64,000 nt of DNA, from NCBI GenBank assembly GCA_965221215.1, contig OZ244872.1, positions 3,030,340 to 3,094,339 of the forward strand, given 5' to 3'. Below are positions 15,191 through 42,352 of the stretch, in pieces. The translations under genes and the position numbers were made by a program. Within the stretch, counting starts at the first letter, position 1. Every line of letters begins with the position of its first letter. A model generated the notes under the pieces. It saw only the letters and a list, made by a program, of their open reading frames with translations, was not told the DNA's origin and made no database searches. The DNA is from Candidatus Aldehydirespirator sp. (GTDB lineage Bacteria; Actinomycetota; Acidimicrobiia; Acidimicrobiales; Aldehydirespiratoraceae).

Positions 15191-15248
15191 GCGGTCGCCT
15201 TCGAGCTCGCGGCCAGCCCGGAGCTTGAAGCGTCCACACCATCTGAAT

Positions 15249-15274: not shown

Positions 15275-15287
15275 ATTCGTGCTGTTC

Positions 15288-16385: not shown

Positions 16386-16428
16386 CGTGTCCCCCCTTTG
16401 TTCCCCCTATGCGTCCTGTAGGCGCGGC

Positions 16429-18891: not shown

Positions 18892-18954
18892 GGCGGGTCG
18901 GGCTGCGCCAAGATCACCGGTTGGGTCTGCTTCAGCATCGCCGTCCGGGCTGCA

Positions 18955-20265: not shown

Positions 20266-20438
20266 TGTCGGGAGTCGCCCACCTCGGTCGTCATAATCGC
20301 CAGCGAACACTACCCGGCCTCCCCCACCCGGTACGCCGCACCGCGCGAGCGGCCGAGCAAATTCGGACCGTCAACCGGTGTCGTCGGGACCCAGAAGCGG
20401 TGTTGCCCGTGGCGGCCCGAGCGACCCCGAGCAGACCG

Positions 20439-23445: not shown

Positions 23446-23590
23446 GCGCAAATTTGGTGAGAGCCGGTCGCGTCGCAGCGGGGTCATTCCCGCTCTTGTT
23501 CGCTGTGCTCACGGGCCGCTCGGGCCACGGCCTCGCGGCGCGCGCTGCGGGAACCCCAAGGGGGACGGGTCTAGTCGCTCGGCCTCTAGG
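23446..23590 (-). repeat. Dispersed repeat family DR, copy A (full length, ~145 bp)
   Basis: Read in the element's own orientation: cctagaggccgagcg...gaggccgtggcccgagcggcccgtgagcacagcgaacaagagcgggaatgaccccgctgcgacgcgaccggctc...tttgcgc. It contains the hairpin AGCGGG-aatgac-CCCGCT. Confidence 0.85.
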
Positions 23591-25520: not shown

Positions 25521-25660
25521 TCCTTGCTGAGCCACTGTCATAGGGCTGTACAAACATCCGTATAGCAGCGCCTTCGGAGTCGAGGGAGTGTGCAAGTCCG
25601 GAGAGCCGAAGGTCAACGGCGTTGGAGCCGTTCACGGCGTCCCCTCTCGGGAGTCAGAGA

Positions 25661-27325: not shown

Positions 27326-28242
27326 ACCGGCCAGAACCACCGCGTTGGAGTCTGAACGAGTTCCAGCGGGACCTAGACCGTGCGGTCGAGATCTTCCGGG
27401 CTCGCAGACTCAGGGAGCCCGTCGAGCAATACCGCGAAGACTTCGACCGTGCAGTAGGCCGCATCAAGGACCTCATGGCCAAGACCGGCAACCTTGCCGA
27501 GGCGCCGACTGGCGAGTCGCCTGAGGCACTGGAACTCTTGACAGACCCGGAGATGCGAGCCGCCCTGCGGTACCTTGCCGGCCCGCCAATCTCCGAGGAC
27601 GACCTGAAGACCCTGGCGGACATCCCATCTCTCGCGCCGAGCCGGCTGGCCAGCGACGCTACGGCGGCAACGCGGATCATGGAAGTGATTCACGAGAGTC
27701 TCGACACGAGGCGCTTCCCGTGGATGCAAGATCGGAGTTCGCCCGGCGAGAAGGAGATGTACGCCGCGGTGGTGGCGTCTGCGAGCCTCATGGCCGCGCA
27801 GCGCGTGCAGACATTCCGCCGACACGCGGACAAGGGCTACCAGGAAGGGCGCATCCAGCGATATCTGCGCCTGATTGGACTCAAGCAGGTGAACCCGCGG
27901 CCGATCCCCACGATTCGCGAAGCTCCCAATCCCGGCGAGTTCTGCGGCGAGTGCCAGCTAGGCCAAAGGAAGGCCGACATCGTGATCGGCCTCGCAGACG
28001 GTCGCATCATGCCGGTTGAGTGCAAGGTCTCCAACTCAGCGCTCAATTCGGTCAAGCGCCTCAACAACGATGCGGCCGCAAAGGCAGACCAGTGGATCGT
28101 CGCCTTCGGCAAGGACCAAGTCGTGCCCAGCGCCCTGCTCGCCGGAGTCTTCAAGCTCCACAACCTGGAGGCCGCACAGAAAGCCGGGCTAACGATCTTC
28201 TGGTCGCACAGGCTCAAGCCGCTCGGACAGTTCGTCCACTGA
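27322..28242 (+). CDS. Type II restriction endonuclease, XamI-like (PD-(D/E)XK)
   Basis: Translationally coupled to the methylase (the GTG overlaps the TGA). Candidate catalytic core KADIVIGLADGRIMPVECKVSNSALNSVKRLNN (D...ExK). The XamI-family call is from memory of the family signature and has not been searched. Confidence 0.6.
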   Translation: MNRPEPPRWSLNEFQRDLDRAVEIFRARRLREPVEQYREDFDRAVGRIKDLMAKTGNLAEAPTGESPEALELLTDPEMRAALRYLAGPPISEDDLKTLADIPSLAPSRLASDATAATRIMEVIHESLDTRRFPWMQDRSSPGEKEMYAAVVASASLMAAQRVQTFRRHADKGYQEGRIQRYLRLIGLKQVNPRPIPTIREAPNPGEFCGECQLGQRKADIVIGLADGRIMPVECKVSNSALNSVKRLNNDAAAKADQWIVAFGKDQVVPSALLAGVFKLHNLEAAQKAGLTIFWSHRLKPLGQFVH

Positions 28243-28272: not shown

Positions 28273-28406
28273 GGAGGCCGAGCGGGTAGGCGAGCGATTC
28301 CGGCCCATACGGGTGAGGCCGTGGCTATGGGCGACCCGTGAGCGCAGCGAACAAGAGCGGGAATGACCCCGCTGCGACGCGACCGGCTCGCACCTATTTT
28401 GCGCGC
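28273..28406 (+). repeat. DR family, copy B (full length)
   Basis: ggaggccgagcgggtaggcgagcgattccggcccatacgggtgaggccgtggctatgggcgacccgtgagcgcagcgaacaagagcgggaatgaccccgctgcgacgcgaccggctcgcacctattttgcgcgc. Confidence 0.9.
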
Positions 28407-28420
28407 CCCATAACGGAGTT

Positions 28421-29311
28421 CTAACGGTGGGCGGTGGTGATTTGGACGTCGCGGCGTATCACTCCGGCCAGTGCCGCTATCACGATCACCCCGCCCGCGA
28501 CCTGCGCCACCTTGATCGGCTCGTCCAGGAAGAAGACAGCCAGAACCATGGTGATCGGGGGAGCGCCGAGCAGGGCCACCGACGAGACGGTGATCCGCAC
28601 ATGGTTGTGGGCCCAGTTCATCAGCAGGTGTCCCGTGCCCGGCACGGCGATGAGCGATGCCACCCACAGCCAAGCGGTCGTGTCGGGCAGGGCCAGGCCG
28701 CCGCCGGTGAGCACCGCGGGCGGGGTCACCACGATCAGGGCGACGATCCAGGTGACCGCTTGGAACTCCAGGGTGCCGATCTGCGGGCGGGCCTCCTTGG
28801 CGAAGGCCAGCTGCCCCGAGAACAGCAGCAGGGCCACCACGGCCAGCCCGTCGCCGCGCAGGCTCCAAGTGGGCACCGAGGCCGAGCCGAACAGCACCAG
28901 CGCGGTGCCGCCGAGGGCGGCCGCCACCAGCGCCAGCAGCTTGAGCGAGACCGGCTCCGCGAACCGGCGCATCGCCGGCCAGATCAACACCACCGGCACC
29001 AGTGACACGATCATGGCCACATTGGTGACGGTGGTGGACTTGATGGCCTCGTAGAAGGCGATGTACCATAGCCCGAGCATCAAGGCCGACGGCAGGCAGG
29101 CCCGGAACTGGGCGACCGTCACCCGGCGGCGCCGGGCCGCCACCACCGTCGTGTAGATCAGCGCGCTGAGCGCCAGCCGCCAGAAGGCCAGCTGCGCGGA
29201 GTCCAGGTCCACCTGCCGCACCAGGATGTTGCCGGTCCCCCAGCACGCCACCGCGCCGATGACCGCGGCCAGTCCCGCAAGATGCCGGTCGGCGGGAGCG
29301 GACGCGGTCAC
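28421..29311 (-). CDS. EamA/DMT-superfamily transporter
   Basis: 296 aa with ten predicted hydrophobic segments and a duplicated EamA-type architecture. Confidence 0.8.
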   Translation of the reverse strand: MTASAPADRHLAGLAAVIGAVACWGTGNILVRQVDLDSAQLAFWRLALSALIYTTVVAARRRRVTVAQFRACLPSALMLGLWYIAFYEAIKSTTVTNVAMIVSLVPVVLIWPAMRRFAEPVSLKLLALVAAALGGTALVLFGSASVPTWSLRGDGLAVVALLLFSGQLAFAKEARPQIGTLEFQAVTWIVALIVVTPPAVLTGGGLALPDTTAWLWVASLIAVPGTGHLLMNWAHNHVRITVSSVALLGAPPITMVLAVFFLDEPIKVAQVAGGVIVIAALAGVIRRDVQITTAHR

Positions 29312-29346: not shown

Positions 29347-29437
29347 GCTCTTGTTCGCTGCGCTCACGGGCCGCTCGGGCCGCGGCAGGGCCTCGCCCGC
29401 GTGAACCGGATTCGCTCGCCTATCCGCTCAGCTCGGC
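29347..29437 (-). repeat. DR family, copy C (left two-thirds, inverted relative to copy B)
   Basis: The reverse complement reads gagccgagctgagcggataggcgagcgaatccggttcacgcgggcgaggccctgccgcggcccgagcggcccgtgagcgcagcgaacaagagc. It abuts the stop of the GmaS-like gene. Confidence 0.8.
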
Positions 29438-30805
29438 TCAGAACAGGGTCAGGTACTGGTCGACCTCGCCTGCGGTGACCACATGGTGGTGGGCCAGGAA
29501 CTCGTCGCGCTTCACCTTCACGTAGTAGTCGCGGTAGGGGCCCTCGGCCGTGTCGCCCAGCCCGGCGCCGATCACATCGTTGGCAGCGAGCCGGTCGGCG
29601 GCGTGCAGCAGCGTGGGCGGCAGGGTCTCGATGCCCTTGGCCGCCACCTGCTCGGCCGACAGCGTGAACAGGTTGTCGGTGTTGGGCTCGCCCGGATCGA
29701 GGCCGCGGTCGAGTCCGTCGAGTCCGCAGGCCAGCATGGCCGCGAACATCAGGTACGGGTTGGCCGCGCCGTCGCCGAGGCGGACCTCGATGCGGTCCGG
29801 CTCGGGCACCCGGATCATCTGGGTGCGGTTGTTGCCGCCGTAGGCCGCGTAGGCCGGCGCCCAGGTGGCCCCCGAGGTGGGCGCGCCCACCCCCATGCGC
29901 TTGTAGGAGTTGACGATGGGGCAGGCCACCGCCACCAGCGACGAGGCGTGCTCGAGGAGGCCGCCCACGAACTTGTAGGCGGTGTCGCTGAGGCCCAGCC
30001 CCTGGGTGTCTTCGCCGCCGGGACCGCCGCCGATGAACAGCGGCTCGTCGGCGTCGCCCGACCACAGGCTGAGATGGACGTGCAGGCCGTTGCCGGTCTT
30101 GTCGGCGAACGGCTTGGGCATGAACGTGGCGTAGCGGCCGTCGCGCTGGGCCAGGGTGTGGACCATCAGCCGGAACAGGATCAGCCGGTCGGCGGTGGTG
30201 AGCGCGTCGGAGTACTGCCAGTTCTGCTCGTACTGGCCGTTGGCGTCCTCGTGGTCGTTGGCGTAATTGCCCCAGCCCATAGCGTCGAGGTTCTTGGACA
30301 CCGCGGTGAGGTGGGGCAGCATCCTGGTGAGGCCCTTGGCGTCGTAGCAGGGCAGCGCCATGGTGTCGCGGTCGTCGGCCACCGAGATGGCGCCGTCGTC
30401 GTTGCGCACCACCAGCGAGTACTCGGCCTCGACGCCGCACTTGAGCACCAGGTTGCGCTCGGCGGCGGCATCGAGGGCCCGGCGCAGGATCACCCTCGGC
30501 GCGTAGGGCCAGAGCTCGCCCTCCACGGTGGGGTCGCACTGCATGGCGGCCACGTTGGGCTGCCACGGAAGCTGCGTGTACGACGCCGGGTCGGGCAGGG
30601 CGAGGATGTCGGGGCTGGACGGGTCCTGGCCCATGGGGCCGGCCGCGAACCCGGCGAACCCGGCCCCGTCGCTCATCAGCGCCTCGAGGGCGCCGACGGG
30701 CACCAGCTTGGCGCACGGCTTGCCGTGCATCTCCACGAACATGGCGTAGATGAACTCCACGCCGTCGGCCTCCACCCGGCCCCGGATCTCATCGAGCGCG
30801 CTCAT
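29438..30805 (-). CDS. Glutamine synthetase family protein, candidate gamma-glutamylmethylamide synthetase (GmaS-like)
   Basis: 455 aa counted from ATG 30805, with GGGGGAA upstream. It has the GS beta-grasp and catalytic domains (KCGVEAEYSLV, GNGLHVHLSLW, NRTQMIRVP) and lies divergent from the three glutamate-synthase-like subunit genes. Confidence 0.7.
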   Translation of the reverse strand: MSALDEIRGRVEADGVEFIYAMFVEMHGKPCAKLVPVGALEALMSDGAGFAGFAAGPMGQDPSSPDILALPDPASYTQLPWQPNVAAMQCDPTVEGELWPYAPRVILRRALDAAAERNLVLKCGVEAEYSLVVRNDDGAISVADDRDTMALPCYDAKGLTRMLPHLTAVSKNLDAMGWGNYANDHEDANGQYEQNWQYSDALTTADRLILFRLMVHTLAQRDGRYATFMPKPFADKTGNGLHVHLSLWSGDADEPLFIGGGPGGEDTQGLGLSDTAYKFVGGLLEHASSLVAVACPIVNSYKRMGVGAPTSGATWAPAYAAYGGNNRTQMIRVPEPDRIEVRLGDGAANPYLMFAAMLACGLDGLDRGLDPGEPNTDNLFTLSAEQVAAKGIETLPPTLLHAADRLAANDVIGAGLGDTAEGPYRDYYVKVKRDEFLAHHHVVTAGEVDQYLTLF

Positions 30806-30957
30806 GGTTCCCCCTGTGTCTCGGCTGGGTCGCGGCAGCCGAGAGTAGTCAAGCATCCCCACCCATGGGAATCGAGCCGGTCTGCGGTCGGTGGTGCGCC
30901 GGGCGCTACGGTGCGGGCCGAACTTCGCCGGACAGGGGGTTTCGGGGGACAAGCGGC

Positions 30958-31857
30958 ATGTGCGGCATCGTTGGACTGTTCTGCAAGACCGAGACCCACC
31001 GCCACGAACTGGGCCGGCTGACCGCGGTGATGCTGCGGGAGATGCGCGACCGCGGCCCCGACAGCGCCGGCTTCGCGTCGTATGACCCCGGTGAGCCCGG
31101 CCGCACCCGCATCACCGTGCTGGCCGAGGGCGTCGAGGTGGACTGGGGCGCGGTGGCGGCTGCGCTGGAGGACGTGCTGGACGCGGCGTTGACGGTGCGG
31201 GCGGTGCACGACCACGCCGTGCTCTCCACTGACGGCGACGGCCGGGCCGCCCGCCAATGGATCATCGACAACGTGGTCGGGGCGACGGTGCTGAGCTACG
31301 GCGTCCAGATCGAGCTGTACAAGGCGGTGGGCGATCCCGACCTGGTGGCCGAGCGCTACGACCTAGCCTCCCGCACCGGCACCCACGCCCTGGCCCACAC
31401 CCGCATGGCCACCGAGTCGGCCGTCACCACCCGGGGATCGCATCCGTTCGCCACCGGCGCCGACACCTGTCTGGTGCACAACGGGTCGCTGTCCAACCAC
31501 AATCGGCTGCGGCGCCACCTGGAGGGCCACGGCGAGTCGTTCCAAACCGAGAACGACTCCGAGGTGGCCGCCGGGTACCTGTCGTGGCGGATCCGCTCCG
31601 GCGACTCCATCTCGCAGGCGCTGGAGGGTGCGCTGAGCGACCTCGACGGGTTCTACACCTTCGCCATCGGGGTGGCCGACGGCTTCGCCATCCTGCGCGA
31701 TCCCATTGCCTGCAAGCCGGCTGTGGTGGCCGAGACCGACGACTGGGTGGCCATGTCGTCAGAGTACCGGGCCATCGCCCGACTGCCGGGCGCCGCCGAT
31801 GCCGAGGTGTGGGAGCCCGAGCCGGCCCGCATCTACACCTGGAGCCTGGCCGCATGA
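30958..31857 (+). CDS. Class II glutamine amidotransferase subunit (GlxB/MgsA-like)
   Basis: N-terminal nucleophile MCGIVG, HTRMATES, HNGSLSNH. Confidence 0.8.
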   Translation: MCGIVGLFCKTETHRHELGRLTAVMLREMRDRGPDSAGFASYDPGEPGRTRITVLAEGVEVDWGAVAAALEDVLDAALTVRAVHDHAVLSTDGDGRAARQWIIDNVVGATVLSYGVQIELYKAVGDPDLVAERYDLASRTGTHALAHTRMATESAVTTRGSHPFATGADTCLVHNGSLSNHNRLRRHLEGHGESFQTENDSEVAAGYLSWRIRSGDSISQALEGALSDLDGFYTFAIGVADGFAILRDPIACKPAVVAETDDWVAMSSEYRAIARLPGAADAEVWEPEPARIYTWSLAA

Positions 31858-32693
31858 GCGGCGTGCGGACCTTCGATCTGTCGGTCGTCACCCGACGCGA
31901 GCTCAACGGCGCCCTGCACGCCGCTGGCGACGACGAGCGCTTCGAGGTGCTCAATCCCCGGGGCGCCCATGCGGTGGCCTGCGGCATCACCACCGACATC
32001 GAGGTGGTGGTGCGGGGCTCGGTGGGTTACTACTGCGGGGGGATGCACCAGCGGGGCCGGGTGCTGGTCGAGGGCAACGCCAGCACCGGCCTGGCCGAGA
32101 ACATCATGTCGGGGACGGTGCGCATCACCGGCAACGCCACCATGTCGGCCGCGGCTACCGGCTGCGGCGGTCTGGTGGTGGTGGGCGGCAACGCCGGCGC
32201 CCGCTGCGGCATCTCCATGAAGGGCGTCGACATCGTGGTGGGCGGCGACGCGGGCCACATGAGCGCATTCATGGCTCAGGCCGGGAACCTGGTGGTGTGC
32301 GGCGACGCGGCCGCCGATCTGGGCGACTCGATCTACGAGGCCCGCATCTTCGTGCGGGGCGACGTGGAGTCGCTCGGAGCCGACTGCGTCGAGAAGGAGA
32401 TGCGCCCCGAGCACCTCCAGACGCTGGCCCGGCTGCTGGCCGCGGCCGCTCCCACCGTCGAGGGGGCCGACCCGGCCGAGTTTCGCCGCTACGGCTCGGC
32501 TCGCCGCCTCTACAACTTCACCATCGACGATGTGGACGCCCTAGCCCGAGCGGCCCGTGAGCGCAGCGAACATGAGCGGGAAAACACGGCCCGAGCGGCC
32601 CGTGAGCGCAGCGAACATGAGCGGGAATACCCGGCCCGAGCGGCCGGTGAGCGCAGCGAAGGTGAGCGGGAAATCCACGAGGCGGCCCGCTGA
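31854..32693 (+). CDS. GXGXG-motif subunit (glutamate synthase alpha C-terminal domain-like, GlxC/MgsB-like) with a repeat-encoded tail
   Basis: ATGA overlap with the upstream gene. Beta-helix repeats (GSVGYYCGGMHQRGRVLVEGNASTGLAENIMSGTVRITGNA...). The last 45+ aa are encoded by three 45-bp DR core units. Confidence 0.8.
   Translation: MSGVRTFDLSVVTRRELNGALHAAGDDERFEVLNPRGAHAVACGITTDIEVVVRGSVGYYCGGMHQRGRVLVEGNASTGLAENIMSGTVRITGNATMSAAATGCGGLVVVGGNAGARCGISMKGVDIVVGGDAGHMSAFMAQAGNLVVCGDAAADLGDSIYEARIFVRGDVESLGADCVEKEMRPEHLQTLARLLAAAAPTVEGADPAEFRRYGSARRLYNFTIDDVDALARAARERSEHERENTARAARERSEHEREYPARAAGERSEGEREIHEAAR
32544..32678 (+). repeat. DR family, copy D: three tandem 45-bp core units inside a CDS
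   Basis: gcccgagcggcccgtgagcgcagcgaacatgagcgggaa... starts at 32544, 32589 and 32634. Each unit translates to ARAARERSEHERENT or a close variant. Confidence 0.9.
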
Positions 32694-34039
32694 TGGCCGA
32701 GCAGTCCGACGGCGGAACCTCCGGCCCCGACTTCTGGCATCTGCGGGAGTCGTACACCTTCGACCGCAACGTGATTGCCGAGATCCGCCGGGCCGCCAAC
32801 ACCGGCATCTACCGGATCCGGGGCTGGGGGGCCAAGCGCCGCCTGCCCACCCTCGACGACCTGGTGTTTTTGGGGGCGTCGATGTCGCGCTATCCGCTGG
32901 AGGGCTACCGGGAGGCCTGCGGCACCGACGTGGTGATCGGCGAGGACCGGGCCGAGCGGCCGGTGCACCTGAAGATCCCGGTCACCATCGCGGGGATGAG
33001 CTTCGGCTCGCTGTCGGCTCAGGCCAAAGAGGCGCTGGGGCGGGGCGCGTCGGCGGCGGGCACGTCCACCACCACCGGCGACGGCGGGATGACCGACGAG
33101 GAGCGCCAGCACTCGGCGACGCTGGTGTACCAGTATCTGCCGTCGCGCTACGGCATGAACCCCGACCATCTGCGGGCCGCCGACGCCATCGAGGTGGTGG
33201 TGGGCCAGGGAGCCAAGCCCGGCGGCGGCGGAATGCTGCTGGGCCAGAAGATCACCGAGCGGGTGGCCGAGATGCGCACCCTGCCCGAGGGGATCGATCA
33301 GCGCTCGGCCTGCCGCCATCCCGACTGGACCGGTCCCGACGATCTGGAGATCAAGATCGGCGAGCTGCGAGAGATCACCGACTGGCAGATTCCGGTCTAT
33401 GTGAAGGTGGGCGCGGCCCGCCCCTACTACGACACTGCGCTGGCGGTGAAGGCCGGCGCCGACGCGGTGGTGGTGGACGGCATGCAGGGCGGCACAGCCG
33501 CCACTCAGGACGTGTTCATCGAGCATGTCGGCATCCCCACGGTGGCCGCTATCGGCGAGTCGGTGCGGGCCCTGCGCGAGCTCGGGGTGCATCGCCGCGA
33601 GGTGAAGCTCATCGTGGCAGGCGGCATCCGCTCGGGCGCCGACGTGGCCAAGGCGCTGGCGCTGGGGGCCGACGCGGCCTCGATCGGCACCGCCGCGCTG
33701 ATCGCCATCGGCGACAACGACCCGGCCCACGAGTCCGAGTACCGGGCGCTGGGCGCCTCGGCCGGATTCTGGGAGGACTTCCAGGCCGGCAACGACCCGG
33801 CCGGGATCACCACCCAGGATCCCGAGCTGTCGGCCCGCCTCGACCCGGTGCTGGCCGGCCGCCGCCTGACCAACTACCTCCAGGTGCTCACCATCGAGAC
33901 CCAGATACTGGCCCGAGCCAACGGCAAGTCCCACGTCTTGAACCTGGAGCCCGAAGACCTGGCCGCGCTCACGGTGGAGGCCGCAGCCATGGCCAAAGTC
34001 CCCCTAGCAGGCACCAACTGGACCCCCGGCACCCCCTAA
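32693..34039 (+). CDS. FMN-dependent glutamate-synthase-domain subunit (GlxD/MgsC-like)
   Basis: Its start overlaps the upstream TGA. TIM-barrel GltS FMN-domain motifs are present (ISAMSFGSL-type IAGMSFGSLS, GQGAKPGGGG, VVVDGMQGGTAA, IVAGGIRSGADV). Confidence 0.8.
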   Translation: MAEQSDGGTSGPDFWHLRESYTFDRNVIAEIRRAANTGIYRIRGWGAKRRLPTLDDLVFLGASMSRYPLEGYREACGTDVVIGEDRAERPVHLKIPVTIAGMSFGSLSAQAKEALGRGASAAGTSTTTGDGGMTDEERQHSATLVYQYLPSRYGMNPDHLRAADAIEVVVGQGAKPGGGGMLLGQKITERVAEMRTLPEGIDQRSACRHPDWTGPDDLEIKIGELREITDWQIPVYVKVGAARPYYDTALAVKAGADAVVVDGMQGGTAATQDVFIEHVGIPTVAAIGESVRALRELGVHRREVKLIVAGGIRSGADVAKALALGADAASIGTAALIAIGDNDPAHESEYRALGASAGFWEDFQAGNDPAGITTQDPELSARLDPVLAGRRLTNYLQVLTIETQILARANGKSHVLNLEPEDLAALTVEAAAMAKVPLAGTNWTPGTP

Positions 34040-34102
34040 TCCCCGCAAACCCAGCCGAAAACGCCCACCGCCACAGTTCGATGTGCAGTTCGGATCCCTT
34101 CC

Positions 34103-35395
34103 TCATGGGCCCAGGGCGATGATAGGCACCACCTGAACTCCGTCGGGGCGGCGATAAGCGGCACCGGTGGAGGTGACCACCACCATCGCGGCTAGGTCGT
34201 CGACCCGAGAGGGGCGTACCTTGCTGCGGAGTCGCAGCAGCGCCCTGGCGGCGGCGTCGACAGCGTCAGGGCCGGGGCTCACCTTCACTTCAGCGGCGAT
34301 CCACGCACCATCGTCGCGCTCGATGACGGCGTCCACCTCCAGACCGGTGTCGTCGCGGTAGTGGTACACCTCCCCGCGCTCCGGCTGGCTGTAGACGCGC
34401 AGGTCGCGGACGGCCAGCGACTCGAACAGCAGGCCGAGAGTGGCAGGATCGGCCAGCAGCCGGCGGGGGGACACCCGCAGCAGATGTGCTGACAGCGACG
34501 GGTCGATGAAGTGGCGTTTGGCCGCTCGACGCAGCGTCGCCCTAGAGCGCAATTGCACCGACCAGGCCGGCTGGTCCTCGATCACGAAGACCCGCTCTAG
34601 CGCGTCGAGATAGGCGGCGACGGTGTTGCGGCCTGCTGGCCCCTCTGCGTCCGTGTCCGCGGCCAGTGTCGATGTTTTGGCCTCGGTGGCGGTGTGGCGG
34701 GCGATCGAGCGCATCAGCCTGCGGACCGCGGCAGGGTTGTGGGTGACGCCGTTGGCGGCAGGAAGTTCGAGGTGGACGATCTCGTTGAGGTAGTCGCCCG
34801 CGGCGAGGAGGGCCTGTTCGGTGTCGAGTCCCAGGCTGGCAGGCCAGCCGCCGATACAGATAGATGCCGCGATCTCGGCCAGGCCCCGCCCGGACTGTGG
34901 CATGGCCGAGAAGGCTTCGCCGTTGAAGAGGCCCTGCATCGAGACCGAGCCGTCGGAGAGACCGCTCTCGTGCAACGACATTGGCCGCATCAGAACCCGG
35001 GCGATGCGGCCCACCCCGGTGTGGCGGGTGATGTCGTCTTGCGGGGCAGCCGAGCCCGTCAGCAGGAATTGGCCCGGCACAGCGCGGTCGTCGCATTCCC
35101 GCCGCACCCGATTCCACAGTCCTGGAGCGTTCTGCCACTCGTCCAACAATCGTGGCGCGGCACCGACCATCACTGCTCCGGGGTCGGCCTCGGCGAGCAG
35201 GAGGGTGGCCTCGTCGTCGAGCCGCGCCTCGCTGCGAGCGAAGCTTCGCGCCGTCCAAGTTTTGCCGCAGCCCCGGCAGCCTTCGATCAAGACAGCCCCT
35301 CGACGCTGCAATGAGCCTTCCACGATGGCATCCACGCTCCGGGGCCGGTAACCCGGCATCACCAGCGGTCTCAGCGCTTCATGGTCACGACCCAT
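34103..35395 (-). CDS. AAA-type ATPase with DUF4143 C-terminal region, paralogue 2
   Basis: Walker A GCRGCGKT, LLDEWQ, FLLTGSA, LFESLAVRDL...AAEVK. The start is taken at MGRDHEAL (35395). Confidence 0.75.
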   Translation of the reverse strand: MGRDHEALRPLVMPGYRPRSVDAIVEGSLQRRGAVLIEGCRGCGKTWTARSFARSEARLDDEATLLLAEADPGAVMVGAAPRLLDEWQNAPGLWNRVRRECDDRAVPGQFLLTGSAAPQDDITRHTGVGRIARVLMRPMSLHESGLSDGSVSMQGLFNGEAFSAMPQSGRGLAEIAASICIGGWPASLGLDTEQALLAAGDYLNEIVHLELPAANGVTHNPAAVRRLMRSIARHTATEAKTSTLAADTDAEGPAGRNTVAAYLDALERVFVIEDQPAWSVQLRSRATLRRAAKRHFIDPSLSAHLLRVSPRRLLADPATLGLLFESLAVRDLRVYSQPERGEVYHYRDDTGLEVDAVIERDDGAWIAAEVKVSPGPDAVDAAARALLRLRSKVRPSRVDDLAAMVVVTSTGAAYRRPDGVQVVPIIALGP

Positions 35396-35451
35396 AGCAG
35401 CCTGTCCTCGTCCTACGACAGGCCAACGCGGAGTGTTCCGTGAACCCGTCA

Positions 35452-35566
35452 AAGTGCGTTCTGGGAATGCTACGCAGTGCACTTTGGGAATGAAACGCAG
35501 TGCACGTTGGGAATGCTACACAGTGCACTTTGGGAATGAAGCGCAGCGCGTTTTGGGAATGTAGCG
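35452..35566. repeat. Five exact-period 23-bp tandem repeats (consensus CAGTGCACTTTGGGAATGMWACG)
   Basis: Units start at 35452, 35475, 35498, 35521 and 35544. Each contains a GTGCAC-like palindrome and TTGGGAATG. The array lies 57 bp upstream of the ATPase-2 start and 95 bp upstream of the DMGDH-like gene. Confidence 0.9.
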
Positions 35567-35660
35567 TGGGGTTTGCTGGCGGTGGGTTGGGGACTGGCGT
35601 AGATTGGCTCCGACTTGGGGCCGGACGGGCCGGACCTGCGAATCGACGGATGGGAGTTCA

Positions 35661-38120
35661 ATGGTCCAGGCGCCGCCCGACCGAGCGCAGATCGTGGTGG
35701 TGGGCGGCGGCATCGTCGGTTGCAGCGTGGCCTACCACCTGGCCCGGCGGGGCATCAGCGACGTGGTCGTGCTGGAGCAGAACAAGCTCACCGGCGGCAC
35801 CACCTGGCACGCGGCCGGGCTGGTGTCGCAGCTCAAGTCGACCTTCAGCCTCACCAAGCTGGCCACCTACTCGGCCCAGCTCTACGAGGCCCTGGAGGAC
35901 GAGACCGGCCAGGCCACCGGCTGCCGCACCCCCGGATCGATCTCGGTGGCCGCCGACGCCGAGCGCTGGGAGGAGATCCGACGGGCCGCGGCCATGGCCG
36001 TGACCGCCGGGGTCGAGACCCGCCAGATCGACATCGACGAGCTGCGGGAGCGCTGGCCGCTGATCCGCACCGACGACATCGTGGGCGCGCTGTTCGTCCC
36101 CAAAGACGGCCACACCTCCCCGGTGGACACCACCGTGGCGCTGGCCAAGGGGGCCCGCAGCCGGGGAGTGCGCATCATCGAGGACGTCGAGGTAACCGGC
36201 CTGCGCACCCGCGGCGGTGCCGTCGCCGGGGTCGACACCGAGCAGGGCAGCATCGAGACCGAGACCGTGGTGCTGGCCACCGGCATCTGGACTCGCCAGC
36301 TCGCGGCCCAGATCGGGGTGAACGTGCCGCTGCAGGCCTGCGAGCACTTCTATGTGGTCTCCGAGCCGCTCGGGCTCGACGCCGACACCCCGGTGCTGCG
36401 CGACCCCGGCAACTACACTTACTTCAAGGAGGAGACCGGCAAGATCATGGCCGGATTCTTCGAGCCCCGGGGCAAGGTGTGGAACCTCGACGGCGTGCCC
36501 CGCGACTTCACCTTCGGCACGCTGGACGAGGACTGGGACCACATCGGGCCGATCTTCGAGCGGTCCGTGCACCGGGTTCCAGCGCTGGGCGACTGCGGCA
36601 TCCAACTGTTCCTCAACGGCCCCGAGGCCTTCACCCCCGACGGGGTGTACTACCTGGGCGAGGCCCCCGAGGTGGACGGCTGCTTCGTGGCGGCCGGGTT
36701 CAACTCGGTGGGCATCCAGTCGGCGGGAGGGGTGGGCTGGGCCCTGGCCGACTGGATCGCCGACCGGCATCCGCCCATGGATCTGTCGTCGGTGGACATC
36801 CGCCGGGCGTTCGAGTTCCAGTCCGACCCCGCCTACCTGGCCGAGCGCATCCCCGAGAGCCTGGGCCTGCTGTACGCCATGCACTGGCCCTTCTACCAGT
36901 ACGAGAGCGCCCGGGGCAGGCGGATGTCGCCCCTGCACGACCGCCTCGACACCGCCGGGGCCGTCTGGGGCGAGACCGCGGGCTGGGAGCGGCCCAACTG
37001 GTACGCCCGCGACGGCCAGGACCGCACCTACGTCTACAGCTACGGCAGACAGAACTGGTGGCCCAACACCGCCGAGGAGTGCCGGGCGGTGCGGGAGCGG
37101 GCCGCGCTGTTCGACCAGACCTCGTTCGCCAAGTTCACCGTGGACGGCCCCGACTCGCTCAAGGTGCTCGACGAGCTGAGCACGGCCCGCATCGACGTTC
37201 CCGTGGGCAAGGCGGTGTACACCCAGTGGTGCAACAGCCGGGGCGGCATCGAGGCCGACCTCACCGTGACCCGCCTCGGGCTGGACCGGTTCCTGGTGGT
37301 GACCGCGGCCGCGGCCCAGACCAGGGACTGGGCCCGACTGCGCCGGGCCGGCCGCGGCCACGACGTGGAGATCGCCGACATCACCGAGCACTGGGCCATG
37401 ATCGGGCTGATGGGCCCCAAGGCCCGCTTCGTGCTCGGCCCGCTCACCGACGCCTCGCTCACCAACACCGACTTCCCGTTCGGCACCTCGCAGCGCATCG
37501 CGGTGGCCGGCATCGACGTGCTGGCCCTGCGCATGAGCTACGTGGGCGAGCTCGGCTGGGAGCTGTACCTGCCCAACGCCCACGCCACCGAGCTCTACGA
37601 CGCGCTGATGAAGGCGGGCGAGCCCCACGGCCTGGCCCTGGCCGGCTACCACGCCATGAACACCCTGCGGCTCGAGTCGGGATACCGGCACTGGGGCCAC
37701 GACATCACCGACGAGGACACCCCGATTGAGGCCGGGTTGGGGTTCACCGTCGGCTGGGACAAGCCCAACCCCTGGAACGGCCGGGCCGCGCTGGAGCACC
37801 AGCGGGAGCGGCCCCGCAACAAGCGCCTCATCCAGTTCCGCCTCGAGCACCCCGAGCTGCTCTGCTACCACGACGACCCGATTCTGCGCAACGGCGAGCC
37901 GGTGGGCAGCACCACCTCGTCGATGTGGAGCTACACCGAGGACCGCTGCCTGGCCATGGGCTACCTGCGCCGCCCCGGCGACGAGGGCGTGGTCCAGGAC
38001 TGGCTGGACACAGGCGCCTTCGAGATCAACATCGGCGGCGAGCTAGTGGTGGCCACCCCGTCGATCCGCAGCTTCTACGATCCCCGAAACCAAAGAGTCC
38101 GCCTGGAGGACGCCCCATGA
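35661..38120 (+). CDS. FAD-dependent dimethylglycine/sarcosine dehydrogenase-like enzyme with a C-terminal GcvT folate-binding domain (paralogue 1)
   Basis: VVVGGGIVGCSVAYHL, GTTWHAAGL (the covalent-flavin His context of DMGDH/SARDH), and a C-terminal aminomethyltransferase fold (YVGELGWELY). Confidence 0.8.
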   Translation: MVQAPPDRAQIVVVGGGIVGCSVAYHLARRGISDVVVLEQNKLTGGTTWHAAGLVSQLKSTFSLTKLATYSAQLYEALEDETGQATGCRTPGSISVAADAERWEEIRRAAAMAVTAGVETRQIDIDELRERWPLIRTDDIVGALFVPKDGHTSPVDTTVALAKGARSRGVRIIEDVEVTGLRTRGGAVAGVDTEQGSIETETVVLATGIWTRQLAAQIGVNVPLQACEHFYVVSEPLGLDADTPVLRDPGNYTYFKEETGKIMAGFFEPRGKVWNLDGVPRDFTFGTLDEDWDHIGPIFERSVHRVPALGDCGIQLFLNGPEAFTPDGVYYLGEAPEVDGCFVAAGFNSVGIQSAGGVGWALADWIADRHPPMDLSSVDIRRAFEFQSDPAYLAERIPESLGLLYAMHWPFYQYESARGRRMSPLHDRLDTAGAVWGETAGWERPNWYARDGQDRTYVYSYGRQNWWPNTAEECRAVRERAALFDQTSFAKFTVDGPDSLKVLDELSTARIDVPVGKAVYTQWCNSRGGIEADLTVTRLGLDRFLVVTAAAAQTRDWARLRRAGRGHDVEIADITEHWAMIGLMGPKARFVLGPLTDASLTNTDFPFGTSQRIAVAGIDVLALRMSYVGELGWELYLPNAHATELYDALMKAGEPHGLALAGYHAMNTLRLESGYRHWGHDITDEDTPIEAGLGFTVGWDKPNPWNGRAALEHQRERPRNKRLIQFRLEHPELLCYHDDPILRNGEPVGSTTSSMWSYTEDRCLAMGYLRRPGDEGVVQDWLDTGAFEINIGGELVVATPSIRSFYDPRNQRVRLEDAP

Positions 38121-40585
38121 CAACGCAACAGGCGCGGTGTGTGATCATTGGCGGCGGGGCCATGGGGGTGGGGCTGCTGTACTACCTGGCCCATGAGGGA
38201 TGGACCGACACCATCCTGCTGGAGAAGGGCGAGCTCACCTCGGGATCGACCTGGCATGCGGCCGGGCTGATCCCCAACTTCATCGGCGACCTCAACATGG
38301 CCAAGGTCCATGAGGAGGCGGTGGCCCTCTACCCCCGCCTCGAGGAGGAGACCGGTCTGTCGGCGGGCTGGCACGGCTGCGGCGCCATCCGGCTGGCCCG
38401 CACCGACGACGAGGTCGACTGGCACCGCTACGTGCACGCCATGCTCACCCAGATCGGCGTCGAGTCGCACCTGATCGGCCCCGCCGAGATCCGCGAGCGC
38501 CATCCTCTGCTGGAGGACCTCAGCGACGTCAAGGTCGGGTTCTACACCCCCAACGACGGCTGGACCGACCCGTCGGGCTGCACCAACGCCATGGCGCGGG
38601 GCGCCCGCAACCTCGGCTGCGAGATACGCCGCCACACGCTGGTGACCGACATGAGCCGCCTGCCCGACGGGCGCTGGGAGATCACCGCCGTCCCCGGCGG
38701 CATGGGCGGCGCCGGCACCGACGACAGCTACCGGATCGTGTGCGAGCACGTCGTCAACGCGGCCGGCCACTACGCCCCCCAGCTCGGGGCCATGGTCGGG
38801 CTAGACGTGCCCATCGTCTCGGTGATCCACCAGTACCTGGTCACCGAGCCCCTGCAGGCCATGATCGACCTCGGCTTCGAGCCTCCCGTGACCCGCGACC
38901 CCCGGTCTTCGTGCTACTACCGCCGGGAGATCGACGGGCTGCTGGTCGGCCCCTACGAAATGTCGGGCTCCAGGGTTTACGGGACCGACGGCATCGACTG
39001 GGCCCACGACTTCCACCTCACCGGCGAGAACGTCGACGTGCTCGAGGAGTGTCTCGAATACACCGCCATGCGCATCGGTGCCTTCGCCACCGCCGGCATC
39101 AAGCAGATCGTGTCGGGGCCGATCACCCACACCCCCGACTCCGGCTATCTGATGGGCCCCGCGCCGGGGCTGCGCAACTACTGGCACTGCAACGGCGCCT
39201 CCATCGGCATCACCCAGGGTCCGGGCGCCGGCAAGTACCTGGCCCAGTGGATGGTCCACGGCCAGACCGAGATCAACGTGCGGGGCATGGACCCCCGCCG
39301 CTTCGGCGACCACACCGGCCCCCGCTCGAGCTTCGCCATCGCCAAGGCCTGCGACGAGTACCACGAGATGTACCAGGTGCGCCTGCCCGGCGAGTACCGG
39401 GCCGCGGGCCGGCCCCAGAAGACGACCCCCATCCACGACCGCCTCGACCGGCTGGGCGCCCAGTGGCAGGAGGTGTACGGCTGGGAGCGGCCCCAGTACT
39501 ACGCGCCCGACGGTGCCGGCGAGCGGCACTCGTTCCGCCGCTCCAACGCCTTCGACCCGGTGGCGGCCGAGGTGCAGGGGGTGCGCCGGCGGGTCGGGAT
39601 CGCCGACATCTCCGCCTTCGCCTCCTTCGAGGTGACCGGCGCCGACGCGGCCGCCTTGCTCGACCGGCTGTCGGCCAACCGGCTGCCGGCTCGAGACGGC
39701 GGCATCCGGCTGACCCACATGCTCACCGACCTCGGCGGCATCGAGTGCGAGATGACCATCGCCCGCCTGGCGGCCGACCGCTTCTATGCGACCTCGGCCA
39801 TCATGGGCCAGAGCCACGACCTCGACTGGCTGCAACAGCACATCGAGCCGGGGGCCGACGTCAAGGTGGCCGACGTGACCGACTCCACCGGCCTGCTGGC
39901 GGTGACCGGCCCCCGGGCCCGCGACGTGCTGGCGACGCTCACCGACGCCGACCTCGCCAATGAGGCCTTCAGGTGGCTGACCGCGGCCGAGATCGCCGTG
40001 GCCGGGGTGCCGTGTGTGGCGATGCGGGTGTCGTATGTGGGGGAGCTGGGCTGGGAGCTGCACTGCGACATGGACCGCCTGGCCGAGCTGTACGACGCGG
40101 TGGTCGCCGCGGGCGAGCCCCACGGGATGGTTCACTTCGGCAGCTACGCCATGAACGTGATGCGCATCGAGAAGGGCTACAAGGCCTGGGGCTCGGAGCT
40201 CACCACCGAGATCACCCCCATCGAGGCCCGCCTGGAACGCTTCATCGACCTGAGCCGGCCCTTCATCGGCCGCGACGCTGCTGTGGCCCGGCGCGACCAG
40301 CCCGAGCCGCTGTCGATGGTGCTGGTGTACTGCGAGGTGGACGCCACCGACAACGATGTGCGGGGCAACGAGCCCGCCTTCGATGCCGACGGCAACGTCA
40401 TGGGCATCGCCACCAGCGGCGCCTGGGGCCACACCGTGGGCCGCAGCCTGGCCTTCGTGTACGTGGCGCCGGCCTTCGAGGCGCCCGGCTCCACCTTCGA
40501 GCTCGACCTGCTGGGCGAGCGCAGGACCGCCACCGTGCTGGCCGAGCCGGCCTACGACCCGGCCAACACCGCCCCCCGATCATGA
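38117..40585 (+). CDS. FAD-dependent dimethylglycine/sarcosine dehydrogenase-like enzyme with GcvT domain (paralogue 2)
   Basis: ATGA overlap with the upstream gene. IIGGGAMGVGLLYYL, GSTWHAAGL, YVGELGWELH. Confidence 0.8.
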   Translation: MTTQQARCVIIGGGAMGVGLLYYLAHEGWTDTILLEKGELTSGSTWHAAGLIPNFIGDLNMAKVHEEAVALYPRLEEETGLSAGWHGCGAIRLARTDDEVDWHRYVHAMLTQIGVESHLIGPAEIRERHPLLEDLSDVKVGFYTPNDGWTDPSGCTNAMARGARNLGCEIRRHTLVTDMSRLPDGRWEITAVPGGMGGAGTDDSYRIVCEHVVNAAGHYAPQLGAMVGLDVPIVSVIHQYLVTEPLQAMIDLGFEPPVTRDPRSSCYYRREIDGLLVGPYEMSGSRVYGTDGIDWAHDFHLTGENVDVLEECLEYTAMRIGAFATAGIKQIVSGPITHTPDSGYLMGPAPGLRNYWHCNGASIGITQGPGAGKYLAQWMVHGQTEINVRGMDPRRFGDHTGPRSSFAIAKACDEYHEMYQVRLPGEYRAAGRPQKTTPIHDRLDRLGAQWQEVYGWERPQYYAPDGAGERHSFRRSNAFDPVAAEVQGVRRRVGIADISAFASFEVTGADAAALLDRLSANRLPARDGGIRLTHMLTDLGGIECEMTIARLAADRFYATSAIMGQSHDLDWLQQHIEPGADVKVADVTDSTGLLAVTGPRARDVLATLTDADLANEAFRWLTAAEIAVAGVPCVAMRVSYVGELGWELHCDMDRLAELYDAVVAAGEPHGMVHFGSYAMNVMRIEKGYKAWGSELTTEITPIEARLERFIDLSRPFIGRDAAVARRDQPEPLSMVLVYCEVDATDNDVRGNEPAFDADGNVMGIATSGAWGHTVGRSLAFVYVAPAFEAPGSTFELDLLGERRTATVLAEPAYDPANTAPRS

Positions 40586-42117
40586 CGGAGGCAGCAGGAC
40601 GGCGCCGGGGCGGGGGCAGGGCCGGACGCATCGCGGCCCGCCAGGCCCCGCTGGAGGTCGACGCTCGGCCGGTGCGGCCGGGACTGCCGGGAGGCAGGTT
40701 CTCGCCGCTGAGCGAGTCCGACCTGCAGCAGGTGTACGACACCGCGCTGGGGTTGCTCGAAGAAGTCGGCATGGGCTCGCCCATCGACGAGTTCACCGAG
40801 GTGGTCACCGCCGCGGGCGGCCATGTGGACGACGCCGGCCGGTTGCGCTACCCGCGTGGATTGGTGGAGGGCGCCATCGCCACCGCGGCCAAAGAATGGG
40901 TGTGGCACGGCTTCGACGACGACCGCTCCATCACCGTGGGCGGCGACCGGGTCCACTTCGGCACCGCCGGCGCGGCCGTGTTGATGTACGACCACGCCGC
41001 CGGGGAGTTCCGTCCCTCCACCGCAGTCGACGTCTACGACTGCGCCCGCCTGGTCGACACCCTCGACCACATCCACTTCTTCGTGCGCACCGTGGTGGCC
41101 CGCGACATGGAGGACGCCCGCGAGCTCGACATCAACACCGCCTACGCGGCCATGGCGGGCACCACCAAGCCGGTCGGCACGTCGTGGTTCGAGCGCGACC
41201 ACGTCTACGAGACGGTGGACATGTTCGACATGGCCCTCGGCGGGCGGGGCGAGTTCCGCAAGCGGCCCTTCGTGGCGGCCAACAACACGTTCGTGGTGCC
41301 GCCGCTGCGCTTCGCGGAGGAGTCGGCCAAGTGCATGGTGGCCCAGGTCGAGACGGGCATGCCCATCAACCTGCTGTCGGCGGGCCAGGCCGGGGCCACC
41401 TCCCCCGCCGCCCTGGCCGGATCGCTGGCCCAGGCCCTGGCCGAATGCCTGGCCGCGCTCACCGGGGTCAACCTGCTGAGTCCCGGCCACCCGTGCGTGA
41501 TGGGCATGTGGCCGTTCGTGTCGGACCTGCGCACCGGCGCAATGAGCGGAGGCTCCGGCGAGGAGGGCATCCTCAACGCGGCCGCGGCCCAGCTGCTCAA
41601 CTGGATCGGCCTGCCGTCGGGCGTGGCCGCGGGCATGGCCGACTCCAAGATCCCCGACAACCAGGCCGGCTACGAGAAGGGCGTCAACGTGACGCTGGCC
41701 GGACAGGCCGGAGCCAATCTGGTGTACGAGTCGGCGGGGATGGTGGCCAGCATCCTGAGCTGCTCGCTGGAGGCGCTGGTGATCGACAACGACATGCTCG
41801 GCTCGATCAACCGCACCGTGCGGGGCATCGAGGTGAACGAGGAGACGCTGTCGGCTGGACTCATCGCCGAGGTGGTGGCCGGGCCGGGCCATTTCCTGGG
41901 TTCGCCCCAGACGTTGGAGCTCATGCAGCGGGAGTACGTCTATCCCGAGATCGGCGACCGCGACACCCCCGACAACTGGATGGACGCTGGCGGCAAGGAC
42001 GCCCGGACCCGGGCCCACGAGCACGTCCAGCGGGTGCTGGCCGAGCACCGTCCGTCCCACATCAGCGCCGAAGCCGACGCCCGCATGCGGTCCTCCTTCC
42101 CCATCCGCCTGCCGTAG
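40582..42117 (+). CDS. MttB-superfamily (trimethylamine methyltransferase family) protein, non-pyrrolysine type
   Basis: ATGA overlap with the upstream gene. 511 aa, TIM-barrel MttB-like throughout, with no in-frame TAG. Confidence 0.7.
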   Translation: MTEAAGRRRGGGRAGRIAARQAPLEVDARPVRPGLPGGRFSPLSESDLQQVYDTALGLLEEVGMGSPIDEFTEVVTAAGGHVDDAGRLRYPRGLVEGAIATAAKEWVWHGFDDDRSITVGGDRVHFGTAGAAVLMYDHAAGEFRPSTAVDVYDCARLVDTLDHIHFFVRTVVARDMEDARELDINTAYAAMAGTTKPVGTSWFERDHVYETVDMFDMALGGRGEFRKRPFVAANNTFVVPPLRFAEESAKCMVAQVETGMPINLLSAGQAGATSPAALAGSLAQALAECLAALTGVNLLSPGHPCVMGMWPFVSDLRTGAMSGGSGEEGILNAAAAQLLNWIGLPSGVAAGMADSKIPDNQAGYEKGVNVTLAGQAGANLVYESAGMVASILSCSLEALVIDNDMLGSINRTVRGIEVNEETLSAGLIAEVVAGPGHFLGSPQTLELMQREYVYPEIGDRDTPDNWMDAGGKDARTRAHEHVQRVLAEHRPSHISAEADARMRSSFPIRLP

Positions 42118-42154
42118 AGTTGACCCTCGTCTCGCATACAAGGGGGAGCGTGCC

Positions 42155-42352
42155 ATGAGAGTTCGCGTCGATCAGGAGGCCTGCCAGGGTCACAACCGCT
42201 GCTACATGCTGGCGCCGGAGCTGTTCGATGTGGACGACGAGGGAACCGCCTTCGAGATCGGCGACGGCGAGGTGGCCCCCGAGCTTGAGGAGAAGGCCCG
42301 CCTGGCCTTCGACAACTGCCCCGAGTACGCAGTCGAGCTAATCGAAGACTGA
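42155..42352 (+). CDS. Small ferredoxin (single-cluster, CxxHxxC...CP type)
   Basis: 65 aa: VDQEACQGHNRCYMLAPELF...NCPEYAV. Confidence 0.8.
   Translation: MRVRVDQEACQGHNRCYMLAPELFDVDDEGTAFEIGDGEVAPELEEKARLAFDNCPEYAVELIED

Follow-up and report, generated by a model that had tools for sequence, protein, structure and literature searches.

We analysed a 64-kb stretch of DNA (hereafter the window) from Candidatus Aldehydirespirator sp. (contig OZ244872.1, positions 3,030,340 to 3,094,339), in which predicted genes of the N-methylglutamate pathway, gmaS and mgsABC, stand beside genes for two single-chain enzymes of the dimethylglycine dehydrogenase (DMGDH) family (DH1 and DH2), an MttB-family protein and a ferredoxin (Fdx). 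A preliminary description of this locus had proposed that one of the DMGDH-like paralogues may replace the four-subunit N-methylglutamate dehydrogenase MgdABCD, which, if true, would have revised a textbook methylotrophy pathway. However, the DH1-DH2-MttB trio was found to travel without gmaS and mgsABC in related genomes, and a SoxB/D/A/G-type operon was located 37-48 kb upstream in relatives with the window's gene order, so that the claim was not upheld. The comparison suggested that the locus is probably a lineage-specific juxtaposition of two catabolic modules and not a pathway in which MgdABCD has been replaced. On this evidence the apparent replacement is a gene-order artefact of one clade, and the claim should not be propagated. 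What is new is an uncharacterised MttB subfamily in conserved partnership with two DMGDH paralogues; the rest consists of known pathway modules rearranged in one lineage. Most MttB-superfamily proteins belong to bacteria other than anaerobic methylotrophs and have no known function, and one subfamily is now tied to two DMGDH-like enzymes across many marine and sponge-associated Actinomycetota.

The gene map of the window, whose G+C content is about 70%, was derived from codon-position G+C and open reading frame (ORF) analysis; families were assigned with Pfam and NCBIfam, and overlaps between ORFs were read straight off the sequence. A locus survey with MgsC as the query and one genome per species yielded 80 MgsC-centred loci, which were compared by tblastn with all window proteins. 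Loci of relatives compared with the window are denoted by L numbers. The features on which the argument draws are listed here with their positions in the window:

7475-9364, plus strand: fatty-acid desaturase with an orthologue in L086, the synteny anchor for the mgdABCD site of relatives.
28421-29311, minus strand: EamA/DMT-family transporter, matching PF00892 in two stretches and weakly TIGR00950 ("carboxylate/amino acid/amine transporter"); its ORF start is possible as far upstream as 29419.
29438-30805, minus strand: gmaS, encoding a protein like glutamine synthetase (GS), with Gln-synt_C at 277 bits and TIGR03105 at 558.5 bits.
30806-30957, no strand: 152-bp spacer between the divergent gmaS and mgsA, with presumed promoters.
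30958-31857, plus strand: mgsA, class-II glutamine amidotransferase-like subunit with GATase_6 and GATase_7 and the N-terminal motif MCGIVG.
31854-32693, plus strand: mgsB, GXGXG subunit (PF01493, 36.4 bits, above the cutoff).
32693-34039, plus strand: mgsC, FMN glutamate-synthase-domain subunit (PF01645, 294.6 bits).
34103-35395, minus strand: AAA_14/DUF4143 ATPase, by Pfam.
35661-38120, plus strand: DH1, about 820 aa, with DAO, FAO_M, GCV_T and GCV_T_C domains.
38117-40585, plus strand: DH2, about 820 aa, with the same four domains.
40582-42117, plus strand: MttB-family protein (PF06253, 349 bits).
42155-42352, plus strand: single-cluster ferredoxin of 65 aa (Fer4_15 and Fer4_13).

A first indication of two separate modules came from the loci in which the trio stood alone. 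L081, from Poriferisodalis, carried an FMN_dh gene with DH1 (71% identity to the window protein), DH2 (78%) and MttB (72%), and no gmaS or mgs genes were nearby. In L082, a minus-strand EamA gene lay divergent from DH1-DH2-MttB, with an EF-G gene farther downstream; these are the window's own flanks, without gmaS-mgsABC and without the ferredoxin. Across these two loci, identity to the window ranged from 71 to 75% for DH1, from 78 to 81% for DH2 and from 72 to 80% for MttB. In L088 and L089, DH1 lay apart from DH2-MttB, from which a minus-strand IclR gene diverged. Orthologues of DH1 at 70-75% identity were numerous, and in all trios observed (L081, L082, L085, L088 and L089) MttB came right after DH2. 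The occurrence of the trio without gmaS or mgs neighbours in L081, L082, L088 and L089 argues that DH1-DH2-MttB is an autonomous unit, apparently older than its junction with gmaS/mgsABC. A search of the available literature on gene associations of MttB with DMGDH, on actinobacterial N-methylglutamate dehydrogenases and on the symbiont genera yielded no description of the locus or of the MttB subfamily with its DMGDH partners.

The second line of evidence concerned the dehydrogenase operon itself. The preliminary description was correct that mgdABCD is lacking at the locus, as family scans and tblastn revealed no SoxB/D/A/G-type genes in the 64-kb window; tblastn with the MgdABCD proteins of L028 and L034 recovered only DH1 and DH2 there, at 24-29% identity. 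Such genes were present in relatives. In L028, soxB (481 bits), soxD, soxA (796 bits) and soxG family genes directly followed mgsC, in L034 the same four families were convergent on mgsC, and in L030 they lay 5 kb away. When the SoxB-type subunit (MgdA) of L034 was used as the query against a large protein collection, orthologues were recovered on the chromosomes of the window-type loci L052 (P0160, 85% identity) and L026 (P0208, 83%), both of which share the window's order gmaS...mgsABC-DH1-DH2-MttB-Fdx. In both genomes the complete four-gene operon was located upstream of mgsC, at a distance of 48.1 kb in the L052 genome (L083) and 37.5 kb in the L026 genome (L084). Relatives with the window's gene order thus do have mgdABCD elsewhere in the genome. 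A similar division into separate operons was reported for Paracoccus aminophilus, in which mgsABC-gmaS and mgdABCD have other genes between them.

Further genomes pointed in the same direction. The genome that holds L082 encodes an MgdA (P0125) that is 99% identical to the L034 query, and this L034/L082 genome has mgdABCD beside mgsC as well as a separate trio. Another MgdA (P0154) and a DH1 from a cluster 87% identical to the window's were carried on records of equal size, 4,740,831 bp. In two sponge metagenome-assembled genomes (MAGs), the accessions of MgdA and of DH1 (from a cluster at 89% identity) were MYB88164 and MYB88197, 33 apart, and MYH92714 and MYH92734, 20 apart; because accessions are assigned in gene order, the two genes would be about 33 and 20 genes apart. 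L086 (scaffold_107, 178,958 bp), from a closer relative of the window, carried a minus-strand LysR gene divergent from mgdABCD, followed by a 271-aa ORF, PGI, HNH and the desaturase; the distance from mgdA to the downstream desaturase is 9.3 kb. The longest contig carrying an MttB 90% identical to the window's also measures 178,958 bp, and the distances fit, so this MttB and MgdA are probably both on scaffold_107.

The third line of evidence was the distribution of the mgsC-DH1 junction. The top MgsC matches, at 93-99% identity, came from sponge-associated Acidimicrobiia MAGs, Ca. Aldehydirespirator (UBA11606) followed by Ca. Poriferisodalis; both lineages have been described as sponge symbionts. 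DH1 followed mgsC in 20 of the 80 loci (L001-L014, L024, L026, L027, L050, L052 and L055), all of the window clade, and additionally in L085. The gap between the two genes was about 50 nt in window-clade loci without an insert. The DUF4143 ATPase stood between them in the window and L001 only, and L012 had a Fic gene at this site. In some loci DH2-MttB-Fdx came directly after DH1, while others had a minus-strand PaaX-like regulator, a Rieske/Ring_hydroxyl_A oxygenase and a 90-aa ORF between DH1 and DH2 (L004 13851-16239, L010 13836-15961 and L085 5008-7415). The EamA gene, which adjoins gmaS in the window clade, has a homologue in L082 (48% identity) that is directly divergent from DH1, which places the former edge of the DH1-DH2-MttB module at this gene. 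The placement of gmaS/mgsABC beside DH1 is best read as one rearrangement event in one clade. As the adjacency arose once, the 20 loci count as one event and have little to say on functional coupling.

The operon junctions were insertion hot spots across the relatives. The gmaS-mgsA spacer carried inserts of 1.7-6.7 kb in L003, L024, L026 and L052, and ORFs were scanned in three of these four inserts (L003, L024 and L052): Schlafen/AlbA_2 genes with HATPase_c_4 were found in L003 (6296-8005) and L024 (5936-7627), and a Fic gene in L052 (1287-2687). The Fic gene of L012 lies at 11757-13070. A DDE_3 transposase gene was present between mgsB and mgsC in L014 (8507-9601), and a Type ISP restriction enzyme gene after DH1 in L005 (14295-20064). 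In the window, an N6-methylase and XamI endonuclease pair (25622-28242) lies between proC and EamA and is absent in L004. The two AAA_14/DUF4143 ATPases of the window are paralogues of about 50% identity (34103-35395 and 5877-7196, both on the minus strand), each a lone insert between conserved genes, and a third was found near a relative's mgd-pgi block (L083 18878-20002, minus strand); these genes behave like mobile or defence-type cargo as judged by their placement. An Amidohydro_2 and F420H2_quin_red pair stood beside EamA and DH1 in L082 (6255-8957) and beside mgdABCD in L083 (8237-9957) and L086 (7222-8977), which suggests that one rearrangement may have exchanged the partners of three modules.

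The families and coordinates of the genes in the preliminary description, a divergent GS-like synthetase, a glutamate-synthase-like trio, an ATPase, two FAD/GcvT dehydrogenases, an MttB-family protein and a ferredoxin, were confirmed, as was its call of gmaS. The GS-like protein scored 558.5 bits against TIGR03105 (cutoff 469.6) and 264 bits against the GlnA model (cutoff 429). Its closest solved relatives were RhGmaS of Rhodovulum sp. 12E13 (7cql, 384 bits) and a "glutamate--methylamine ligase" (9qur, 377 bits), about twice the scores of true GS structures, which reached at most 206 bits. The functional residues described in the RhGmaS paper, including the catalytic Asp177, Glu186 and Arg312 and the Trp300 and Ala48' that set GmaS apart from GS, were mapped onto the window protein through a phmmer alignment. 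Sixteen of the 17 were identical, the exception being Q175, which is Ala. RhGmaS D177, E186, R312, Ala48' and W300 correspond to D184, E193, R327, A51 and W315, the residues of the pocket for monomethylamine (MMA) were kept, and the GS-defining Glu of the Glu flap and Asp50' were replaced by the equivalents of Trp300 and Ala48'. By score comparison and residues the protein did not group with ordinary GlnA; it is a member of the GmaS family and not an ordinary GS, with predicted gamma-glutamylmethylamide synthetase activity.

The assignment of mgsABC also stood, with GATase_6/7, GXGXG and Glu_synthase domains in overlapping frames beside gmaS. The four-gene set of gmaS and mgsABC was present at most of the 80 loci, where MgsC was 77-99% identical to its homologues. 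ATGA overlaps were read at 31854-31857 (mgsA/mgsB), 38117-38120 (DH1/DH2) and 40582-40585 (DH2/MttB), and mgsB and mgsC overlap by TGATG at 32691-32695. The preliminary description had called the mgs genes translationally coupled; the overlaps are present in the window, but that of mgsB and mgsC is not conserved in relatives. This site coincides with a dispersed repeat of the intergenic spacers of the window lineage, with a core of about 45 nt (GCCCGAGCGGCCCGTGAGCGCAGCGAACAAGAGCGGGA) and longer copies up to about 125 nt. Copies in the window lie at 32550-32672 (three in tandem), 23446-23534, 28274-28396, 29347-29432 and 60514-60601, and they are abundant in L001-L014, L055, L085 and L086, with four copies 102 nt apart in L055. 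The window's mgsB reads through three in-frame copies, which gives it a 45-aa C-terminal tail of the ARAARERSEHERE type. The mgsB of L085 encodes 236 aa, the tail is absent, and the repeats sit in the mgsB-mgsC spacer (142 nt in relatives). Folding of the repeat as RNA gave no significant structure (z = -1.4, -1.0 and +1.1).

DH1 and DH2, which are 36.6% identical to each other, matched human DMGDH with 488 and 581 bits, respectively, and DH1 matched the dimethylglycine oxidase (DMGO) of A. globiformis with 380 bits. In DH1, His50 aligned with the His that binds FAD covalently, and His229/Tyr254 aligned with the DMGO dyad His225/Tyr259. DH2 kept the corresponding His47, His238 and Tyr267. Both proteins have full-length folate-binding GcvT domains and look catalytically competent by these residues. 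Neither reached the cutoff of any NCBIfam equivalog model, and JGI names the DH1 orthologues "4-methylaminobutanoate oxidase". Docking in human DMGDH, as reported in the literature, did not tell dimethylglycine apart from sarcosine. Two monomeric SoxB/MTOX-like DAO proteins were also observed, one of 394 aa directly after mgsC in other Actinomycetota (L049 11343-12527) and one of 438 aa near the DH1-DH2-MttB trio of L088 (1-408); both are candidates for N-methyl amino acid oxidation.

The MttB-family protein matched PF06253 over profile positions 1-489 of 500, and it scored 353 bits against TIGR02369, below the cutoff of 525. Its scores of 201 bits to MtgB and 191 bits to the MttB of M. barkeri put it at about the same distance from both. 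Pyrrolysine is absent, as the ORF is uninterrupted, there is no in-frame UAG, and Met352 aligns with the pyrrolysine; the gene ends in a TAG stop codon. An Rfam match to RF02510 (PYLIS_3, "pyrrolysine insertion sequence mttB") was recorded at 41635-41734 on the plus strand, with 52.1 bits against a gathering score of 38. It was rejected as a functional recoding element, since it contains no UAG and starts exactly at the Met352 codon, homologous to the pyrrolysine, which indicates coding homology.

The substrate pocket set this subfamily apart. In MtgB, Y97, R312, H348 and F356 hold glycine betaine, as established by mutagenesis and a ligand-bound structure, and R312 was reported to be conserved in all characterised members using acidic quaternary amines. 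The equivalent residues of the window protein are G130, G347, E383 and I391, so none of the four is kept. Counted over 110 homologues with identities of 69% or more, the four positions held G in 110, G in 106, E in 110 and L or I in 110, giving the subfamily an invariant or near-invariant pocket signature G/G/M/E/L. The pocket thereby loses the Arg and His that bind the carboxylate and gains a conserved Glu. With all four betaine-binding residues replaced, the trio probably acts on a trimethylammonium compound bound in another manner than glycine betaine in MtgB. No gene for a corrinoid protein (B12-binding domain) was present among the window ORFs scanned, which comprised all but a few short ones, or within 10 kb of the trio in L081, L082, L085, L088 and L089.

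The ferredoxin after MttB was kept across the window clade at 77-100% identity and was absent in L081 and L082. L089, from a free-living member of the Acidimicrobiales, independently connected MttB with a ferredoxin once more: the genes downstream of DH2-MttB there encode a short-chain dehydrogenase, a product of 107 aa, a Fer4_15 ferredoxin and a ferredoxin reductase with Pyr_redox_2 and Reductase_C domains (12956-14346), the ferredoxin and reductase lying 1.4 kb downstream of MttB. The Rieske oxygenase of the relatives had its best NCBIfam match, a weak one, to GbcA (122 bits against a cutoff of 670). The window is without this oxygenase set, yet it keeps a ferredoxin that might serve such an oxygenase.

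Together, these findings suggested a model of two modules. In the first, GmaS would ligate monomethylamine to glutamate with ATP, MgsABC would turn the resulting gamma-glutamylmethylamide into N-methylglutamate, and MgdABCD of the SoxB/D/A/G type, most likely encoded tens of kb upstream beyond the left edge of the window, would convert N-methylglutamate to glutamate and methylene-tetrahydrofolate (THF). The second module, an EamA gene divergent from DH1-DH2-MttB and in part extended by the ferredoxin, is autonomous, apparently older and widespread in marine and sponge Acidimicrobiia. Its MttB-family enzyme may take the first methyl off a trimethylammonium compound. The second may be removed oxidatively by DH2, the dehydrogenase with the greater similarity to DMGDH and with translational coupling to MttB, and the third by DH1; each would hand its one-carbon (C1) unit to THF via the GcvT domain. 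The weakest part of the model is the ferredoxin, which probably serves as an electron donor or acceptor, for instance in corrinoid re-reduction or for the Rieske oxygenase of relatives. In the Aldehydirespirator clade, the 4.6-kb block of gmaS and mgsABC would have moved between EamA and DH1. In most clade members, mgsC and DH1, some 50 nt apart, are probably co-transcribed, and the DUF4143 ATPase would since have split them in the window. The funnel proposed in the preliminary description fared accordingly in part only: an MttB-led module stripping methyls to C1-THF fits the evidence and is plausible, but the casting of a DMGDH paralogue as N-methylglutamate dehydrogenase is not supported.

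Several points weigh against the two-module model. How the steps are ordered, what the trio acts on, which acceptor takes the methyl from MttB and what the ferredoxin does were all inferred from sequence. The presence of mgdABCD in the window's own strain was extrapolated from relatives, so that loss or relocation is possible, and the synteny was broken at the corresponding site: the desaturase of L086 is orthologous to that of the window (79% amino acid and 78% nucleotide identity), but in place of the HNH, PGI and mgd genes located upstream of it in L086, the window carries genes for a DUF4143 ATPase and a giant Calx-beta protein. In addition, the SoxB-type subunit of the Acidimicrobiia is about equally far from true sarcosine oxidase beta (360 bits) and from the proteobacterial gmaS-linked MgdA (42-44%), and the operon was assigned as N-methylglutamate dehydrogenase by gene neighbourhood only, with SoxB-type genes beside gmaS/mgs in L028, L030, L034 and Thermoleophilia loci (58-59% identity). 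Positions 1-7450 of the window held no remnant of PGI, HNH or mgd. As the housekeeping gene pgi is also gone from this spot, displacement is likelier than loss, and we consider an operon farther to the left, behind an insertion, likelier than relocation or loss. The giant Calx-beta protein (3-4682, plus strand) is cut by the window start, exceeds 1550 aa and has at least four Calx-beta domains; the large proteins encoded ahead of mgdA in L083 and L084 are not its homologues. A 1766-aa Calx-beta/fn3/CWB2 protein was encoded just downstream of mgsC in Poriferisodalis L018, and surface proteins of the Calx-beta type seem to move around these loci.

Within the two-module model, the function of the trio allows more than one reading. 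At somewhat below even probability, it may constitute an undescribed and probably oxygen-tolerant pathway for the complete N-demethylation of a trimethylammonium compound other than glycine betaine, in which MttB would work without a dedicated corrinoid protein and would perhaps be kept active by the ferredoxin, and which would be fused transcriptionally to the methylamine genes in the Aldehydirespirator clade. Compounds that are plentiful in sponges and seawater are the candidate substrates of such a pathway. The trio gives a testable three-enzyme hypothesis of how abundant symbionts of sponges could obtain C1 units and nitrogen from the quaternary amines of their hosts.

A possible but rather unlikely alternative is that the trio represents the classical glycine betaine route, in which MttB would yield dimethylglycine, DH2 sarcosine and DH1 glycine, beside an unrelated methylamine module. 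Three enzymes would then account for three methyl groups, the biochemically defined PDB relatives without pyrrolysine include MtgB, DH2 is closest to mammalian dimethylglycine dehydrogenase, and the GbcA-like Rieske oxygenase lies between DH1 and DH2 in several relatives. Against this route, the replacements Y97G, R312G, H348E and F356I/L are conserved across the 110 homologues and include the Arg of all characterised users of acidic quaternary amines. Likewise, no corrinoid-protein gene was near the trio in the loci examined, and no betaine transporter gene was present in the locus. Glycine betaine remains the default guess for the trio, and the pocket argues for another substrate or another binding mode.

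The replacement of MgdABCD, or its redundancy, through a single-chain DMGDH-like enzyme acting on N-methylglutamate is improbable, although in 20 species-level loci DH1, the most plausible candidate, is co-directional with mgsC and takes the downstream slot that mgdABCD has in L028. The absence of Mgd-type genes from the window, the other genes at the site of L086 mgdABCD, the JGI label and the occurrence of enzymes for other N-methyl amino acids within the DMGDH family would also fit such a role. However, DH1 orthologues accompany DH2-MttB and not gmaS/mgs in four loci, the adjacency reflects a single event, and genomes with that same adjacency keep a complete SoxB/D/A/G operon, while the L034/L082 genome has both mgdABCD beside mgsC and the separate trio. 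In the window, moreover, the ATPase insert uncouples mgsC from DH1, and the DH1 frame is still intact. Least likely of all, and highly improbable, is a functional juxtaposition in which the trio takes a tertiary or quaternary methylamine, for example of the trimethylamine type, to methylamine for capture by GmaS/MgsABC: the probable co-transcription of mgsC and DH1 in the window clade, the Gly at the Y97 position as in the trimethylamine enzyme and the lost carboxylate-binding residues would suit it, but Met takes the place of pyrrolysine, the trio is far from gmaS/mgs in most lineages, and the known substrates of DMGDH-family enzymes are N-methyl amino acids rather than free dimethylamine or monomethylamine.

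Pfam and NCBIfam scans of the ORFs revealed no related catabolic genes elsewhere in the 64-kb window. Its other genes encode a type II restriction-modification pair, proC, hemA, hemC, a YcaO/ABC-transporter cluster, the desaturase, the second DUF4143 ATPase, the giant Calx-beta protein, an EF-G-like protein, MMPL, pheA, pknB, a pabA-like protein, a GntR regulator and a molybdo-flavoprotein dehydrogenase. The YcaO genes form a putative cluster of the type that makes ribosomally synthesised and post-translationally modified peptides (9463-20370, minus strand), comprising a YcaO protein of about 840 aa (16429-18954), an FAD_binding_4 oxidoreductase (18955-20370), an ORF of about 370 aa without a family match (15288-16406) and two ABC transporters, one with a C39 peptidase domain (12432-14747).

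Compared with known systems, the first module most resembled the N-methylglutamate pathway of Methylocella silvestris, Paracoccus aminophilus and Ruegeria pomeroyi. A GmaS-type synthetase with its catalytic residues kept and amidotransferase, GXGXG and FMN subunits encoded together are common to both, and relatives of the window also have the four-subunit dehydrogenase of the SoxB/D/A/G type. In those three organisms gmaS is downstream of mgsABC, whereas in the window it is divergent; the next conserved gene after mgsC is of the DMGDH family instead of the dehydrogenase operon, which lies outside the 64-kb window and 37-48 kb off in its relatives. The synthetase itself is like RhGmaS (7CQL), with D177, E186, R312, the MMA pocket, W300 and A48' all kept; it differs in the Ala at Q175 and in its actinobacterial host.

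The dehydrogenases share with DMGDH (human 5L46, rat 4PAA) and with the DMGO of Arthrobacter globiformis (1PJ5) the four-domain single chain, the covalent-FAD His, the His/Tyr dyad and the complete folate-binding GcvT domain, and differ in that the window has two paralogues in tandem with an MttB homologue. That homologue is, like MtgB of Desulfitobacterium hafniense (2QNE/9YCE), an MttB-superfamily TIM barrel without pyrrolysine, matched over its full length. In contrast to MtgB, it has none of the four betaine-binding residues, with the conserved Glu in place of H348, it has no adjacent gene for a corrinoid protein, an MtgA-type methyltransferase or a RamA-type activase in the window, and its host is a symbiont and probably aerobic. 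With the MttB of M. barkeri (7XCL) it shares the Gly at the MtgB-Y97 position and a coding stretch matched by the PYLIS mttB model. It differs from that protein in having Met for pyrrolysine and no in-frame UAG, in lacking an MttC gene in the window, and in belonging to a host that is not a methanogen.

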